From: Campylobacterota bacterium
GTDB lineage: Bacteria > Campylobacterota > Campylobacteria > Campylobacterales > Sulfurimonadaceae
Reading direction: 5' to 3'
Length of the DNA stretch: 29,748 bases
Assembly (NCBI GenBank): GCA_034717975.1
Contig: JAYEMF010000144.1
Coordinates: 1 to 29,748, forward strand
Shown: piece after piece, positions 1,241 through 27,841 of the stretch
How positions within the stretch are numbered: position 1 is the stretch's first letter
How the letters are laid out: each line of letters opens with the position of its first letter
Translations under genes and position numbers: made by a program
The notes under the pieces: generated by a model
The model's input: the letters and a program-made list of their open reading frames with translations, nothing else
Database searches by the model: none
What the model was told of the DNA's origin: nothing

Positions 1241-1261
1241 TTTCAAGTTGTAAGGACTTAG

Positions 1262-1565
1262 GTTTCTTCTTTCTTTTTTTGGTGCAAAACAAGAAACAAA
1301 AAAACATTTTTTGGCTGCTCGGAAAGGCTGTCTGTTAAGTTGTATAGGCTCGGTTGGGGTCTGAGTAGATTCTGCCGCCTTTGGATTTGGCTAACTTTTT
1401 GGTTTTTATGGCGTTATAGCAATAGTATCTGTAGTTGTATAGGCTATGATAATCACTGTCAGCCTGATGGTTTTGCAGCACCTCTATCTGGCTGAGTCCG
1501 CGGAGCTTTGGTAGCGAGTTTTTCTTTGCTTACTTTCTTTTTGCCGAAAACAAAAAGAAAGTAAG
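1262..1565. repeat. ~300 bp structured dispersed repeat, copy A
   Basis: Aligns by eye at roughly 80% identity to the reverse complement of ~27575-27841. Perfect 15-bp stem 1529-1543/1551-1565. Lies between convergent moaA and queD. Confidence 0.85.
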
Positions 1566-1604
1566 AGGAGAACGCATTAAAATCTTTGCTTTAAAAGTAT
1601 AGAT

Positions 1605-2186
1605 TTACACTGTATCAGGATTACTAAAACGTTCTCCGGCTTTAATCTTCTCCCACAACTCAAGATCTTTCCAATCCGCCTTAATACCCTCACTGAAAAC
1701 AATCTTTTCCAAATTAATCACACCCATCTTTTCCGAGTAGGCATCCGCTTCAAACCCCTGGGCATAGCCGGTAGCAGTTTCATGCACGATCACACTGTGA
1801 AGTTTGACCTCTTTTTCACCGTTAATAGTGTTTGTCAGGCCCAGAAGCCGGTCGATCATCATAAAGATCACCCGGCTGAACTGCTCGGCTGAAGGAGATA
1901 CGGGGAGCTGGACCCATCTGTCGGAGTGTTTTTTCATATCGGCAAGATAGTCGGTATCATCCTGATCCCACAGCGTAATCGCATGATCAAAACTGTCAAT
2001 AAGCTCTTTCATCCGCTGCTTCGTCAAACCGAAGTCATAAACCATCTGGCCGTTATCGAGATAGTTCGATTCAAACAGGAGCTCGATCTTGTAAGAGTGC
2101 CCATGCAGCGATGCACGACAGCGCTGTGTTGAACAGTTACGGACAATGTGAGCATTTTCAAATTTAAAGAGTTTGCGAATTATCAA
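1605..2186 (-). CDS. queD: 6-carboxy-5,6,7,8-tetrahydropterin synthase QueD (long Campylobacterota type)
   Basis: FENAH, C...LHGHSY, MVYDFG, FDHA, PSAE and VHET motifs of the PTPS/QueD fold. Adjacent to queE. TTG start. Confidence 0.9.
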   Translation of the reverse strand: MIIRKLFKFENAHIVRNCSTQRCRASLHGHSYKIELLFESNYLDNGQMVYDFGLTKQRMKELIDSFDHAITLWDQDDTDYLADMKKHSDRWVQLPVSPSAEQFSRVIFMMIDRLLGLTNTINGEKEVKLHSVIVHETATGYAQGFEADAYSEKMGVINLEKIVFSEGIKADWKDLELWEKIKAGERFSNPDTV

Positions 2187-2204
2187 AAAAATCCTTTTTT
2201 TGGA

Positions 2205-2282
2205 GGGAAGAGGAAAGGGATAAGGAGAAAGAGGAAAAAATATATCACACGATCTCTTCCCACTTTCCCCTTTCCTCTTCCC
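2205..2282. repeat. Heptamer-palindrome element 1 (empty)
   Basis: GGGAAGA GGAAAGG GATAAGG AGAAAGA GGAAAAA, ~15-nt loop, TCTTCCC ACTTTCC CCTTTCC TCTTCCC. Between queE and queD. Confidence 0.85.
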
Positions 2283-2297
2283 TGCTGCAAAGCAGTA

Positions 2298-3056
2298 CTA
2301 AACCCCTTTGTTCTGGTCCCAGATCCGAATGTGAAGTCTATCGGAATAACGGTACCCTTTCCGCTTACAAAACTCGATCACCGCTTCGGTATTGGCTTCC
2401 ACTTCAGTTTTCGAACCGCCCAGCGGCATACAGTAGACCGATTCATGCGGCACATACGCGACAATCTCTTCGATCTCTTTTTCTAATTCCGAACCGATGT
2501 GGGCCTGATCTACCGTAAACTTAAAAAAACTCTCGCGGGCATGAGAAGCGATGTCTATAAATATATCAGGCTTCACCCGTTTGGCATAAGGCTCACCGCT
2601 GTTGGAGAGCTTGACCGAAAGAGCATAGATACATTTACGATAAACCGGATACGCCGTAAAATTAACCGGCATGGCACCGTTAGTCTCGAAAGTCACACGA
2701 TGATCACGCTCTATCAGGTATTGCAAAAATGCTGCAAAGAGCGGATTGTCGGCATAGATGAGCGGCTCACCGCCGGTCAACACAACATCCACATTTTTTG
2801 GAAGTTCATAACTTTCCAGAACATCGATAAGCTGCTGAAGCTCTGTGACCTGCTGCCACTGTGCTCCAAAATGCTGTTTATCAACGGCGTAGACTGTATC
2901 ACATCCCGGTACCGTTACGCCATCAGGAGCCGTCTCCTTACAGCCAAAACCTTCGCAGCGCATATTGCAGCCGCCAAAACGGAAGAAGAGCGACGGAACA
3001 CCCGTGTATTTACCTTCACCCTGGATGGAAAAAAAGTGTTCGACCAGGTAAATCAA
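2298..3056 (-). CDS. queE: 7-carboxy-7-deazaguanine synthase QueE (radical SAM)
   Basis: EHFFSIQGEGKYTG, FFRFGGCNMRC...GCDT, VVLTGGEP, FETNG and RLHIRIW motifs. TTG start. Confidence 0.93.
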   Translation of the reverse strand: MIYLVEHFFSIQGEGKYTGVPSLFFRFGGCNMRCEGFGCKETAPDGVTVPGCDTVYAVDKQHFGAQWQQVTELQQLIDVLESYELPKNVDVVLTGGEPLIYADNPLFAAFLQYLIERDHRVTFETNGAMPVNFTAYPVYRKCIYALSVKLSNSGEPYAKRVKPDIFIDIASHARESFFKFTVDQAHIGSELEKEIEEIVAYVPHESVYCMPLGGSKTEVEANTEAVIEFCKRKGYRYSDRLHIRIWDQNKGV

Positions 3057-3075
3057 AAGGATTCCTTTTGATTTA

Positions 3076-3507
3076 GGGAAGGGGAAAGGGGGAAGAGGGA
3101 AGAGAGAGGGAGCAAGACTTTAAACATTTTCGCTCTTCCTTTTTTTGATAAGACCTTGCAACATTCTTTTAATAGTTTCATTTTTCGCCAAAATCTCTTG
3201 ATGATGGCAATAGTGTAAATTATGTGATATTGTCAGTTGAGTTTCCACTTCCGAACAAGAACCTAATGCAATATATAAAAACTGTATAAACTCTTTATTG
3301 CTTTGCCGAGCAGCACCTTCGGCTATATTTGAAGGGATCGAAACAGCCGCCCTTCGAATTTGATTGGTCAATCCAAATTTTTCATCTGATGGAAACTGTT
3401 GAGTGAGTTGGTATATATCGGTGACTAAATCTACCGATTGCTTCCAGACATCAAGTCTTTTATGCATCGTTTTTTTCCTCTTCCCTCTTTCCTCTTCCCT
3501 CTTCCCC
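3076..3507. mobile_element. Gene-bearing heptamer-palindrome element 2: inverted 7-mer arrays enclosing a four-helix-bundle gene
   Basis: Purine arm 3076-3110 (GGGAAGG GGAAAGG GGGAAGA GGGAAGA GAGAGGG) and pyrimidine arm 3472-3507 (TTTTTCC TCTTCCC TCTTTCC TCTTCCC TCTTCCC) flank an AT-rich ORF. Mobility is inferred, not shown. Confidence 0.65.
3120..3467 (-). CDS. Four helix bundle protein (23S rRNA-IVP / bAvd-like family), 115 aa
   Basis: Signature LDVWKQS...FPSDEKFGLTNQIRRAAVSIPSNIAEG...FLYIALGSCSEVETQL...MLQGLI. Start placed at ATG 3467 (MHKRLDVW), overlapping the moeA stop (ATGCATAA). Confidence 0.93.
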   Translation of the reverse strand: MHKRLDVWKQSVDLVTDIYQLTQQFPSDEKFGLTNQIRRAAVSIPSNIAEGAARQSNKEFIQFLYIALGSCSEVETQLTISHNLHYCHHQEILAKNETIKRMLQGLIKKRKSENV

Positions 3508-4722
3508 GACACTAACCAATGAGGTTTGTGTCTCGCAATTAAATGTAAAACGTGTTGGGATCACTTTGACGCTACTCCCTTTTTCAAGCATCGATACTGT
3601 TTCATCGATCATGATGAAACCGTTGGCTTTCGCCAGCGGCGAAACCATTCCCGGTGCGAACTTCTCAGACGCTTTAAACGACTCTCCATTATAAAAGCCG
3701 GGGATAAGTGTACGGCGTCCCTGTTTGACTTTGAAATCTTCTGCCATTTCCGCCTGCAGTGAACCAAGATACTTTTCATGACCTCCGCTGAGAGCCAGAA
3801 TGATACTCTGTCCGAACAGCTCGAAATTAAGTGCCGCAGCAAGGGGATTGCCAGGGAGGTTTAACACAGCAGTTTTACCGATCTTTCCAAAGGTGGTCGG
3901 TTTCCCCGGCTTAATATTGATCTTGTCAAAGAGTATCTCTAGACCGAAAGCACCAAACGCCTCTTTCGTATAATCGGCATCACCCACACTTACACCACCT
4001 GAAGTGATGATAAGGTCACTGTCCAGCGCGCTCTCAATATGCTCATGTAGTGCTTCGAGCGAATCTTCAGCCGTCCCAATAAAACTGACATCACAGCCAA
4101 GTTCCTGAACGCGTGCTGTAAAAGTCGGGGTGTTCGTATTGTAAAGCTGATGCGATTCCACCTGCTCAAAATGCATCTTCAGTTCACTGCCTGATGCAAA
4201 GAGAGCCACCCGCGGCTTTTTATAGAGATGCACATGACTGATCCCCTGAGAAGCAAGCAGAGTGATATGGTGGGCATAGAGACGGACACCCGATCTCAAC
4301 AGCGCATCATCTGCCTGGATATCCTCACCGCAAAGACGAATATGCTGACCGGCTTTGAGGTTTTCGGGCAAGATCACTTCATCACCGTTAGGCTCGGTAT
4401 TTTCCACAGGAACAATGCATTCCGTTCCCTCAGGGATCTTTGCCCCGGTCATAATCTTGGTGCAGGAGCCTTCAAAGATCTTGCTATCGTCTTTATCACC
4501 GGCGAAAATAGTGTGCAGGACATTGACCGATTTGCCGGCATCGGCAATCTTTACGGCATAGCCATCCATCGCGGAGTTGTCATACGGCGGCAGATTGTGT
4601 ACCGCTGTAACATCGTGAGCAAGTACCCTGCCGAGCGCTGTTTCGATCGGGAGGAGTTCAGTTGATTTAGATGTGACATTCTGATAGATCAGATCTAGTG
4701 CTTCTTCGACAGATACGGCCAT
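3460..4722 (-). CDS. moeA: Molybdopterin molybdotransferase MoeA
   Basis: PPYDNSAMDGYAV, KIMTGAKIPEG, SGGVSVGDAD, IKPGKP and LPGNP motifs. The last ~15 aa are translated heptamer repeat. Confidence 0.95.
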   Translation of the reverse strand: MAVSVEEALDLIYQNVTSKSTELLPIETALGRVLAHDVTAVHNLPPYDNSAMDGYAVKIADAGKSVNVLHTIFAGDKDDSKIFEGSCTKIMTGAKIPEGTECIVPVENTEPNGDEVILPENLKAGQHIRLCGEDIQADDALLRSGVRLYAHHITLLASQGISHVHLYKKPRVALFASGSELKMHFEQVESHQLYNTNTPTFTARVQELGCDVSFIGTAEDSLEALHEHIESALDSDLIITSGGVSVGDADYTKEAFGAFGLEILFDKINIKPGKPTTFGKIGKTAVLNLPGNPLAAALNFELFGQSIILALSGGHEKYLGSLQAEMAEDFKVKQGRRTLIPGFYNGESFKASEKFAPGMVSPLAKANGFIMIDETVSMLEKGSSVKVIPTRFTFNCETQTSLVSVGEEGRGKREEEKNDA

Positions 4723-4737
4723 TAATATCCTTTGTTT

Positions 4738-4809
4738 GGGGAAGGGGAAAGGGGAAGGAGAAAGATGAACTGGCCAACTCCTCTTCCCTCTTTCCCCTTT
4801 CCCCTTTCC
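4738..4809. repeat. Heptamer-palindrome element 3 (empty), in the probable moeA 5' UTR
   Basis: GGGAAGG GGAAAGG GGAAGG AGAAAGA, 16-nt loop, TCTTCCC TCTTTCC CCTTTCC CCTTTCC. Confidence 0.85.
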
Positions 4810-4822
4810 TTATCTATACGGG

Positions 4823-8362: not shown

Positions 8363-9178
8363 ATGCTTACCCTTGTTCCAACTCCCATCGGCAATATCAG
8401 CGATATTTCGCTGCGCGCCATGGAGACACTTTCACAAGCAGATATTCTACTCTGCGAAGACACCCGAATCACCAAAAAACTTCTTCACCTTTTAAAAGAG
8501 CGTTATCAGTTAGCGACCAAAGAACAGCGTTTCATCTCACTCCACTCCCATAATGAACAGCGCTTTATTGAAACATTGGCACCATCATTTTTTGATGAGC
8601 ATGTTGTTTATGTAAGCGATGCAGGCATGCCGGGCATCAGTGATCCCGGTCAGCAGCTGGTGCGTTACTGTATTGATCATGACATTGACTATGATGTATT
8701 GCCCGGAGCCAATGCAGTCTTAACGGCATTTGCAGCCAGCGGTTTTGTTGAAACGCAGATGCTCTTTTTCGGATTTTTACCGCACAAAGGGAGCGATCGC
8801 AGCAGCGCACTGCAGCAGGCACTTCACAACGGCTTTACGACGGTTCTCTATGAATCCCCTCACCGCCTCGGAAAACTCCTCGACGAACTTGAAGCAGAAG
8901 TACCCGAACGCCAACTCTTCGCAGCCAAAGAGCTGACAAAAAAGTTTCAACGCTATCTTAACGGTACAGCCAAACAGATCAAAATAGAACTCGATGGCAA
9001 TTTTCGAGGAGAATGGGTGGTCGTGATCGAAGCGGGTGAAGCGCGCCACAGCACACTCAGCGAACGTGAGGTCCTTGCCCTTGATCTACCTAAAAAAGCC
9101 GCGGCAAAACTGATCGCCAAAATAACGGGTGAAAATGCAAAAGCCTGTTATCAGAGGTTGGTAAAAGAGGAAACGTAA
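8363..9178 (+). CDS. rsmI: 16S rRNA C1402 2'-O-methyltransferase RsmI
   Basis: LVPTPIGN, CEDTR, VSDAGMPGISDPG, FFGFLP, YESPHR, KELTK, RGEWV. Confidence 0.96.
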   Translation: MLTLVPTPIGNISDISLRAMETLSQADILLCEDTRITKKLLHLLKERYQLATKEQRFISLHSHNEQRFIETLAPSFFDEHVVYVSDAGMPGISDPGQQLVRYCIDHDIDYDVLPGANAVLTAFAASGFVETQMLFFGFLPHKGSDRSSALQQALHNGFTTVLYESPHRLGKLLDELEAEVPERQLFAAKELTKKFQRYLNGTAKQIKIELDGNFRGEWVVVIEAGEARHSTLSEREVLALDLPKKAAAKLIAKITGENAKACYQRLVKEET

Positions 9179-9246
9179 AGGGAAAGGGAACAGTCCAATC
9201 AACTTTTTTCCTCTTTCCTCTTTCCCCTTCCCCCTCTCCTCTTCCC
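9162..9246. repeat. Heptamer-palindrome element 4 (empty), left arm overlapping the rsmI stop
   Basis: Degenerate purine arm 9162-9190 and pyrimidine arm TTTTTCC TCTTTCC TCTTTCC CCTTCCC CCTCTCC TCTTCCC (9205-9246). Confidence 0.8.
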
Positions 9247-16377: not shown

Positions 16378-16407
16378 CGGGGAAGAGGTCCCCTTCCCTC
16401 TTTCCCG
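16378..16407. repeat. Heptamer-palindrome element 5 (minimal)
   Basis: CGGGGAAGAGG...CCTTCCC TCTTTCC CG, directly after the FdhF-like stop. Confidence 0.65.
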
Positions 16408-22799: not shown

Positions 22800-22803
22800 A
22801 ATG

Positions 22804-22957
22804 GGGAAGAGGAAAGAGGAAAGAGGAAAGAGATAATCATCTGCTACAAAAGCTGTTATAATTTATAAAATATTTATCGTTATTGCAAAATATGATTAAA
22901 GGCATACAATGGTTCCTGTTCCGTTCCCCTCTTCCCGCTTCCCCCTTTCCCCTTTCC
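22804..22957. repeat. Heptamer-palindrome element 6 with ~80-95 nt AT-rich loop
   Basis: GGGAAGA (GGAAAGA)x3 at 22804-22831, and ...TCTTCCC GCTTCCC CCTTTCC CCTTTCC ending at 22957. Confidence 0.85.
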
Positions 22958-22979
22958 TTCGCACCAGAGGTGTGAACTA

Positions 22980-24475: not shown

Positions 24476-25063
24476 TTACAGCCCGTTACCCCACATATGC
24501 ATCTTTTTGGCCATTACCAGATCATACTCCTCGAAAATATCTATTTGATTGGCTGCGCGATACTCCGATTTTTCCAGATCTTCGTACATCTTAACGATAT
24601 CCATCTCCCCTTTGGGAACAGTAATAATAACTTCACCTGTATTGGCCAGTGTCGTATAACAGGCTTTCAAAATACGTTCCGGAGAGGTATGACGATGAAA
24701 AACATCGTGGAGAATAACAATATCATTGTCCCGAGGTAGTGCCCTGAAAGGTTTGGCAAAATCAGGTACTGTATGCAGTTTCAGATGTTCGGAAGCTTCA
24801 AAGTGTTGATGCTCACCCGGGAATAGAGAAAGAGAAAGCCGTCCATCATAAGGGATAAGAAAATCAATAAGCAGCTGTGTCAATGCATCGGCATGCGTTG
24901 TGACCTCCAATAGTTTATATCCCGGTTGCGGATGGAATAGCTCTAAAAATTCTCTGTGTTCTTTTTTTTGAGAAGGGGAAAGAGGAAAGTGGGAAGAGGA
25001 TGGTGTACTTATCCTGTTTTGCTCTTTCTCTTTCCTCTTCACGATTTCCTCTTTCCTAATCAT
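24476..25063 (-). CDS. Hypothetical protein with degenerate class I methyltransferase-like fold and repeat-derived N-terminus
   Basis: PGYKLLEV, DIVILHDVFH, ILKACYTTLANTGEVII resemble MTase motifs, but GxGxG is absent. Coupled to the upstream gene (TAATG). Confidence 0.75.
   Translation of the reverse strand: MIRKEEIVKRKEKEQNRISTPSSSHFPLSPSQKKEHREFLELFHPQPGYKLLEVTTHADALTQLLIDFLIPYDGRLSLSLFPGEHQHFEASEHLKLHTVPDFAKPFRALPRDNDIVILHDVFHRHTSPERILKACYTTLANTGEVIITVPKGEMDIVKMYEDLEKSEYRAANQIDIFEEYDLVMAKKMHMWGNGL
24970..25056. repeat. Heptamer-palindrome element 7, in frame inside the CDS 24476-25063
   Basis: GAGAAGG GGAAAGA GGAAAGT GGGAAGA, loop, TCTTTC TCTTTCC TCTTCAC GATTTCC TCTTTCC. About 87 bp. 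Confidence 0.8.
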
Positions 25064-27505: not shown

Positions 27506-27841
27506 TCTTTCTTTTTTATTCCGAAAAAAAGAAAGAGGGCACGTGTGTCCAATGCCATTTCAAAGCATTGGATGAAGAAAAAATACGTTTACCAAAGCTC
27601 CGCGGATTCAATTAGTTAGAAGTGCCTTAAAAGTATCAGGCTGACAGTTATTGTCATAGCCTATGAAACTACATACGCTGTACCCTCATGCCATAAAAAC
27701 TCAAACGTCAGCCAAATCCAAAGACAGCAAAAATTACTCAGACCACAACCGAGCCTATGTAACTAAACAGACACCCTTCCCGAACAGCCAAAAAAATGTT
27801 TTTTTGTTTCTTGTTTTGCGCCAAAAAAAGAAAGAAGAGAC
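27506..27841. repeat. ~300 bp structured dispersed repeat, copy B (inverted relative to copy A)
   Basis: Reverse complement aligns with 1262-1527. Terminal stem 27506-27517/27525-27536, extra hairpin 27548-27572. Between convergent ABM genes. Confidence 0.85.

Follow-up and report, generated by a model that had tools for sequence, protein, structure and literature searches.

The intervening sequence (IVS) in the 23S rRNA of Coxiella carries an S23p gene, forms a 28-bp stem with heptamer repeats and is excised by RNase III (PMC4990558). Genes of this S23p or four-helix-bundle (FHB) family have also been described inside cas operons (PMC3936711), and Avd, whose pentameric barrel resembles that of S23 proteins, binds RNA through each of its five protomers (10.1101/2023.10.23.563531).

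Heptamer arrays have been catalogued separately. Xanthomonas campestris contains 186 GGGAATC arrays, mostly of four units, which lie mainly between co-directional genes with the G-rich strand just past the stop codon and include 70 inverted cases (PMC4692102). The accessible part of that report reads these repeats and the GGGGAYT repeats of Nostoc as G-quadruplex formers and draws no link to the FHB gene; row 15 of its S2 table places a four-unit array over the start of XCC0516, with no partner arm listed. TAACTGA repeats of Beggiatoaceae, Cyanobacteria and Bacteroidetes are intergenic, patchy and mostly direct, with two to six units near start codons; a binding protein has been postulated for them, and the available text treats the repeats as unexplained (PMC4679880). 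Its main text contains none of the terms 'four helix bundle', 'intervening sequence' or 'S23', and a literature set without most subscription journals yielded no paper joining the FHB family to intergenic heptamer pairs outside rRNA.

The excess of heptamer repeats in bacteria and the function of S23p/FHB proteins have both long been unexplained, and the genome described here, G000, ties them together. REP/RAYT systems and MITEs offer another precedent, in which one gene-bearing copy is accompanied by many gene-less palindromes with clade-specific motifs. The window, the whole 29,748-nucleotide stretch analysed here, is contig C144 of G000. From peptide snippets we take its host to resemble sulfur-oxidising Campylobacterota, and the gene names rho, murI, gmhA, gmhB, hemE, arsC, arsB and mnmG in G000 are presumed from the same kind of snippet.

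An FHB gene between inverted heptamer arms

The gene at the centre of the locus (Table 1) belongs to the FHB family. Its product matches PF05635 over the whole model (E = 1e-40; 138.6 bits, cut-off 33.8) and TIGR02436 with 138.9 bits (cut-off 24), and a solved homolog, XCC0516 (2GSC, five chains), is found at E = 7e-28. Arrays flank it on both sides and its GC content is 36%, compared with 45% for the genome, so the first-pass annotation was right to describe an AT-rich FHB gene inside heptamer arrays. There are two further paralogs in G000. The copy on contig C9 is 82% identical and 3′-shortened, and differs from the window gene over codons 1–87 at 32 synonymous and 11 non-synonymous codons; the third, on C55, is 21% identical.

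Two familiar settings of the family were considered and rejected. A diversity-generating retroelement does not fit, with the Avd model NF033474 at 25.8 bits against a cut-off of 80 and no reverse transcriptase (PF00078) found anywhere in the G000 assembly, which extends to the whole genome the earlier remark that none was recognisable in the window. A 23S rRNA IVS is rejected by location, as the cassette sits between moeA and queE, outside an rRNA gene; an Rfam search of the window gave no match. One feature by which an IVS is recognised is present all the same: an S23p ORF enclosed by terminal inverted repeats that could pair into a long stem.

Table 1. Positions of the FHB cassette and of the empty copies in the window
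Feature	Position	Strand	Basis
FHB gene (PF05635 / TIGR02436), 115 aa	3120..3467	-	profile matches and solved homolog
Upstream arm, coding strand reads about four GGRAAGR units	about 3470..3507	-	array scan
Downstream arm, coding strand reads the complementary pyrimidine units	3075..3112	-	array scan
24-codon relay ORF	3053..3127	-	predicted from sequence: FHB stop, downstream arm, TTG start of queE
Empty pair, queE/queD, with a GC-stem triloop mini-hairpin outside	2203..2283		array scan; fold z -6.3
Empty pair, divergent junction upstream of moeA	4738..4810		array scan
Empty copy, rsmI/rlmB, worn purine arm	9162..9246		array scan; fold z -1.4
Minimal empty copy, formate-dehydrogenase-like gene / yraN	16378..16407		array scan
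Empty pair ahead of ribE, loop long and AT-rich	22803..22958		array scan
Empty pair within an ORF (24476-25063) that runs on into the next gene	24972..25057		array scan

The arms are woven into the neighbouring reading frames. MoeA is extended at its C terminus by translation of the upstream arm, and its stop (3460) lies over the FHB start; MoeA of G000 is 420 aa long, and that of relatives ends about two codons past residue 404. On the other side, the start of the predicted relay ORF overlaps the FHB stop and its own stop overlaps the queE start. Fusion or relay of this kind affects 37 of 77 downstream arms across many loci (16.2 expected) and 14 of 37 empty copies (5.7 expected), counts that come from a crude gene caller with some high null values. 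The median arm has 4.3 units. The cassette folds arm to arm (z = -3.1), and most empty copies are foldable too.

The gene order moeA–FHB–queE is derived by inversion: in relatives the order is moaA–(FHB)–queE–queD, facing moeA. One breakpoint of the inverted FHB–queE–queD segment lies just outside the upstream arm and the other in a repeat of ~300 bp at 1241–1604. The first-pass annotation had proposed comparing moeA–queE junctions in relatives for empty sites. Cassette-free sites exist, for in G019, G036, G007 and G092 moaA and queE overlap or adjoin each other, but the junction it named is not ancestral. An FHB cassette lies between moaA and queE in G094, G106 and G112, where arms of another word align by position with the downstream arm of G000; these three have the whole cassette, and G124 and G138 retain only the FHB 3′ end and a worn arm. 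In g8 genomes, AATGGWR words at this site align unit for unit with GGRAAGR of G000.

Several other observations concern the same region. The inversion, spanning window 1241–4722, is specific to G000, and at its breakpoint beside the upstream arm moeA lost its stop codon. Another repeat family, ~300 bp long, occurs at window 1262–1526 and 27575–27841 and has matches on at least eight other contigs. The ~530 bp between moaA and queE in G002 (L063) presumably encode a RelE/ParE-type toxin–antitoxin module.

Arrays across the genome

A whole-assembly scan found 102 arms in 69 loci, comprising 31 pairs and 38 single arms; an order-4 Markov control of 800 kb, read on both strands, gave three arms. 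Only two pairs enclose an FHB gene (C144 and C9) and 29 are empty. In all 31 the purine arm precedes the pyrimidine arm (binomial p = 9e-10), and the dominant units are GGGAAGA (84) and GGAAAGA (69). Single arms account for 24 of the 55 strong loci and occur in both orientations (10 purine-sense, 7 pyrimidine-sense).

The six empty copies first reported for the window held up in part. Four are full pairs (2203–2283, 4738–4810, 22803–22958 and 24972–25057); at 9162–9246 and 16378–16407 only the pyrimidine arm passes the threshold, the purine arm being short or worn. The queE/queD pair is intact in G002, decayed in G001 and absent from G007, G029, G083 and G092, where the two genes are adjacent or overlapping. 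The pair upstream of moeA is common to G000 and G002, worn in G001, and lacks one 7-nt unit, at 4790, in DNA run X3. No arms are present at the rsmI/rlmB copy in G001. In genus g8 (L038, L064 and L066–L068) the queE–queD gap holds a different palindromic element of 110–150 bp where G000 and G002 have the GGRAAGR pair.

The empty loops, 13–132 nt long, are unrelated and share nothing beyond one 14-mer. They hold no trace of the FHB gene (longest shared word, 9 nt), and the arrays show no target-site duplication (flank match, 4.5 nt; null, 4.3). By junction, 26 pairs are co-directional, three divergent and one convergent, and one is at a contig end; the co-directional share (26 of 30) is not significant against a background of 77% (p = 0.13). 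Intrinsic terminators, short GC hairpins with a U run at convergent junctions, were rejected on junction orientation, with only 1 of 30 pairs convergent. GC-stem triloop hairpins (TTT, AAA or TCT) stand outside the arms at 11 of 55 loci in G000, compared with 3 of 828 control junctions; examples are C27:47160, C50:10266, C62:13848, C130:12826 and window 2283. They do not seem to be a general part of the unit, because under looser rules cassettes of other genomes show no enrichment (31 of 103 versus 35 of 89). The window itself holds 7 of the 55 strong loci where 0.65 are expected, but its arrays were the reason for choosing it, and across the genome as a whole the loci are not significantly clustered (p = 0.095).

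G000 is rich in other repeats. A 14-mer family has 48–77 copies and a GC-rich hairpin family ~32, and pieces of these repeats lie inside some empty loops (C39, C114). At C130:12826–13600, right after an empty pair, a gene 5′ end and its upstream stretch recur in several tandem repeats across assembly gaps; we take the repeated gene to be flhB-like.

The heptamer word and the gene clade

The C55 paralog is enclosed by an AATTTWR-like word, and G000 also holds gene-less AATTTWR arrays of the same polarity. One such empty pair, at C111:33750–33813, lies between two tRNA-like sequences. Inverted arms (stem score at least 14) flank 103 of 142 FHB loci, compared with 5 of 142 shuffles, and 52 of 79 FHB loci outside Campylobacterota, in many other phyla, are armed; the suggestion that gene and arms form a unit therefore holds well beyond the window. 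The period is 7 nt in 78 of the 103 armed loci and 8 nt in 16, and G exceeds C in the 5′ arm of 100 of them. Some cassettes (L007, L099, L151 and L097) use 8-nt or ~11-nt units instead. Weak Avd-like matches in relatives have no arms. On viral contigs, 9 of 17 homologs reach a stem score of at least 14. Among L316–L321, which are viral, some homologs are armed, and those of L318–L320 have a C-rich 5′ arm, contrary to the usual polarity.

For 100 armed FHB loci, arm similarity exceeds 0.3 in 67–92% of pairs with more than 65% protein identity and in 2–3% of those below 55%; a quick tree was relied on for its well-supported tips only. Paralogs within one genome have different words in 12 of 13 pairs, the exception being the 82%-identical G000 pair. 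Because arm similarity tracks protein identity and nearly all same-genome paralogs differ, the word appears to travel with the gene: as a correlation, the heptamer word follows the gene clade and not the genome. The idea that each paralog clade has its own heptamer is well borne out, in G000 by AATTTWR around C55 and GGRAAGR around C144 and C9.

An FHB match above cut-off was found in 39 of 301 genomes searched. Among 150 family genomes, a sample assumed to lie inside that of 300 genomes, at least four matches to two degenerate array patterns occur in 19 of 30 genomes with an FHB match above cut-off and in 7 of 120 without, so arrays are commoner in FHB genomes, as had been anticipated. The patterns were derived from cassette arms, some matches are those very arms, and the counts were transcribed by hand. 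Genus g8, for which strict paired-arm patterns were too narrow, supplies 11 of the 19 positives, and kin are not independent; without g8 the counts are 8 of 19 and 3 of 115. The link between array and gene is not tight. G032 and G113 have a cassette and no further match of its word; in G094, G124 and G138 CGTGTTA arrays are numerous, and no gene of the corresponding clade was detected; and G002, G100, G134 and G142, which are 72–94% complete, have arrays and no FHB gene found with the query used. G002 (83% complete) has intact arms, and may be a strain mix because two versions of one junction are present.

Shared sites and word swaps

The array sites are old, and different species and genera have them in common. 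The 62 loci in relatives yield ten distinct cassette junctions whose flanking genes are neighbours in G000 (the genes beside most of the others are missing there, and L017 was set aside as a false adjacency), and four of the ten carry arms in G000, where ~3.5% of junctions do (p = 3e-4). From 47 gene-less array loci in other genera come 16 distinct junctions, of which nine also carry G000 arrays, mostly with another word. Neighbouring junctions carry G000 arrays in 4 of 23 cases, and against this local baseline 9 of 16 gives p = 0.017.

The 28 G002 loci examined give 13 distinct array junctions between adjacent G000 genes: 11 have GGRAAGR in G000, one has AATTTWR and one is bare. G001, which is 100% complete and in which no FHB gene was found, has worn arms or no arms at each of the six shared junctions. 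The units GGRAATG/ATA make up 13 of 44 at shared sites in G002 (possibly a strain mix) and 1 of 80 in G000, a lineage-wide shift. One junction, C130 60/61, carries four words, in G000, in G001 and G002, in G129 and in G134. Locus L029 consists of an arm, half a gene and an arm.

A proposed junction-dwelling cassette and its alternatives

Starting from the unit structure, the polarity, the link between word and clade, the deletion intermediates, the shared sites and the word swaps that we observe, we put forward, at about an even chance, a junction-dwelling cassette from which the gene is repeatedly lost while sites are re-used and arms rewritten. We picture the unit as a small selfish element in which two inverted arms, each of about four heptamers, enclose an FHB gene. 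It would sit just behind the stop codon at gene junctions; judging by the reading frames, translation would often continue through it by read-through or a relay ORF. The gene would be lost by internal deletion, with intermediates in relatives, and arm pairs or single arms would remain. The shared sites suggest that empty copies stay put and have no spread of their own, and that a limited set of junctions is re-used, the arms there being replaced or rewritten with another word. The simplest route would be for a new cassette to recombine into an old site and be lost again, presumably through host recombination, the cassette itself not appearing to encode a DNA-moving enzyme. The empties would then be both residues and landing sites of a cassette repeatedly occupying the same junctions. 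By analogy with XCC0516 and Avd, the protein is probably a pentamer that would bind its own heptamer array as single-stranded nucleic acid, with about one unit per subunit; we infer some four to five units per pentamer because the median arm has 4.3 units and Avd contacts RNA with five protomers. Such binding would keep the arms intact while the gene is present.

The main weakness of this reading is that the loops hold no trace of the gene and ~50 losses are required; G000 alone would call for no fewer than 50 independent events of gain and loss. The shared sites could be ancestral rather than re-invaded, and the local baseline leaves 9 of 16 at only p = 0.017. Also against it are the intact arms of G002 with no FHB gene found, the CGTGTTA arrays of G094, G124 and G138 without the clade gene, and the cassettes of G032 and G113 without further word matches. 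No joint skipping the FHB gene was found in the DNA contigs of four runs from one study. A bolder version, which we think rather unlikely, is that FHB pentamers read the clade-specific heptamer and, together with a host enzyme, bring about the writing or overwriting of arms at operon junctions that form a fixed set. G-rich units added to both 3′ ends of a break would give the fixed polarity, and a large share of bacterial heptamer repeats, including Xanthomonas GGGAATC, would be explained.

TRAP is a precedent for a protein that binds repeats, and FHB pentamers might likewise serve the host, binding arrays in transcripts at a few percent of junctions and tuning translation or stability, while selection keeps the arms at ancestral sites and shifts the word with the protein. 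We rate such a regulon as unlikely, though deserving of serious thought: sites are conserved across genera, words shift lineage-wide, arms decay in G001, the gene is under purifying selection (32 synonymous versus 11 non-synonymous) and Avd binds RNA with all its protomers (10.1101/2023.10.23.563531), but only 39 of 301 genomes have an above-cut-off FHB gene, single arms face either way, stepwise selection could not produce a full word swap at one site, and Rehm et al. saw no regulatory role for the Xanthomonas repeats in the part of their report available (PMC4692102). Arms selected to pair as RNA, with RNase III cutting the insert out and the empties as processing sites, would bring the locus closest to the Coxiella IVS, which has the same gene, a 28-bp stem, heptamers and RNase III cleavage (PMC4990558); the cassette folds arm to arm, and its stems are of similar length (median, 36 nt). 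On the sense strand, however, G·U does not exceed A·C in cassettes (88 versus 113; wider set, 190 versus 237) or empties (69 versus 72), so selection for an RNA hairpin is not supported, nor is the RNA-level processing that the first-pass annotation had entertained. With 24 of 55 strong loci single-armed, arms often predicted to be translated and a cut mRNA not rejoined, we regard this possibility as distinctly improbable; the wobble counts and the either-way single arms fit binding-site arrays better than RNA stems under selection.

The first-pass annotation had read the empties as derivatives or binding targets of the gene-bearing unit, and they might be non-autonomous palindromes moved by it in trans, as REP elements are by RAYT. 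Two empty word families match the two resident clades, arrays and gene co-occur (19 of 30 versus 7 of 120), the window is dense in loci (7 of 55) and G000 has six Y1_Tnp matches. Yet the five Y1_Tnp loci checked have no GGRAAGR doublet and no such arms (0 of 5), on which REP/RAYT was rejected, and a MITE or non-autonomous IS derivative fails on the unrelated loops and the flank match (4.5 nt against a null of 4.3). Neither loop nor length is common to the empties, no target duplication marks them, and their old sites recur in other genera. The clustering, moreover, is not significant (p = 0.095), and the window had been chosen for its arrays. Mobile derivatives of either kind are not supported, and this account is quite unlikely. 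That the arrays are slippage-born simple repeats or terminators, linked to the gene by shared ancestry alone, seems highly improbable. Unit indels do occur, genus g8 has long pure runs, and g8, whose members are kin, supplies 11 of the 19 positives. Against slippage stand the fixed polarity (31 of 31 pairs, 100 of 103 cassettes), the presence of arms at 52 of 79 FHB loci spread over many phyla, the single convergent pair among 30 and the co-occurrence that persists without g8.

The part most worth testing is site sharing with word swaps. G000 offers two resident clades with two words and orthologous junctions with different words per lineage, and for the solved homolog XCC0516 the repeats of the host genome have already been catalogued. 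Should the arms prove to be rewritten as the resident protein changes, the family would amount to a programmable scaffold for binding repeats, and operon junctions would be edited by a route not described before.

Comparison with known systems

The G000 system shares with REP/RAYT and MITEs a gene-bearing copy, gene-less palindromes and clade-specific words, but its unit contains no HUH transposase, neither loop nor length is conserved, target duplication is lacking and the sites are fixed over genera. What G000 adds suggests that its empties, at sites shared with relatives, are not mobile derivatives. In contrast to Avd systems, no reverse transcriptase was found in G000, its protein scores 26 bits against the Avd cut-off of 80, and weak Avd-like matches in relatives are armless. 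The TAACTGA repeats are, like the arrays of G000, intergenic heptamer arrays; they are mostly direct as far as described, and those of G000 are inverted (PMC4679880). With Xanthomonas GGGAATC the empties share their anatomy, so far as the published description goes (PMC4692102). Quadruplex heptamers (Rehm 2015) are defined by four G3 tracts per array; in G000 the units GGGAAGA and GGAAAGA dominate, whereas many FHB-linked words are A/T-rich and unable to form quadruplexes, and many related words have no G run.

The closest likeness is to ORF-bearing 23S rRNA IVS such as that of Coxiella, in whose accessible description a gene of the same family lies inside terminal inverted repeats of ~30 bp, with heptamers before the start codon, heptamer copy-number variation and internal ORF deletions (PMC4990558). 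In contrast to that IVS, the G000 cassette, known here from its sequence, sits at protein-gene junctions with arms that are often predicted to be translated, is accompanied by 29 gene-less pairs and has no enrichment of sense-strand wobble. The cassette is real and well above chance; by these tests it is not an IVS, a diversity-generating retroelement, a REP/RAYT system or a MITE, yet it is built like an ORF-bearing IVS.
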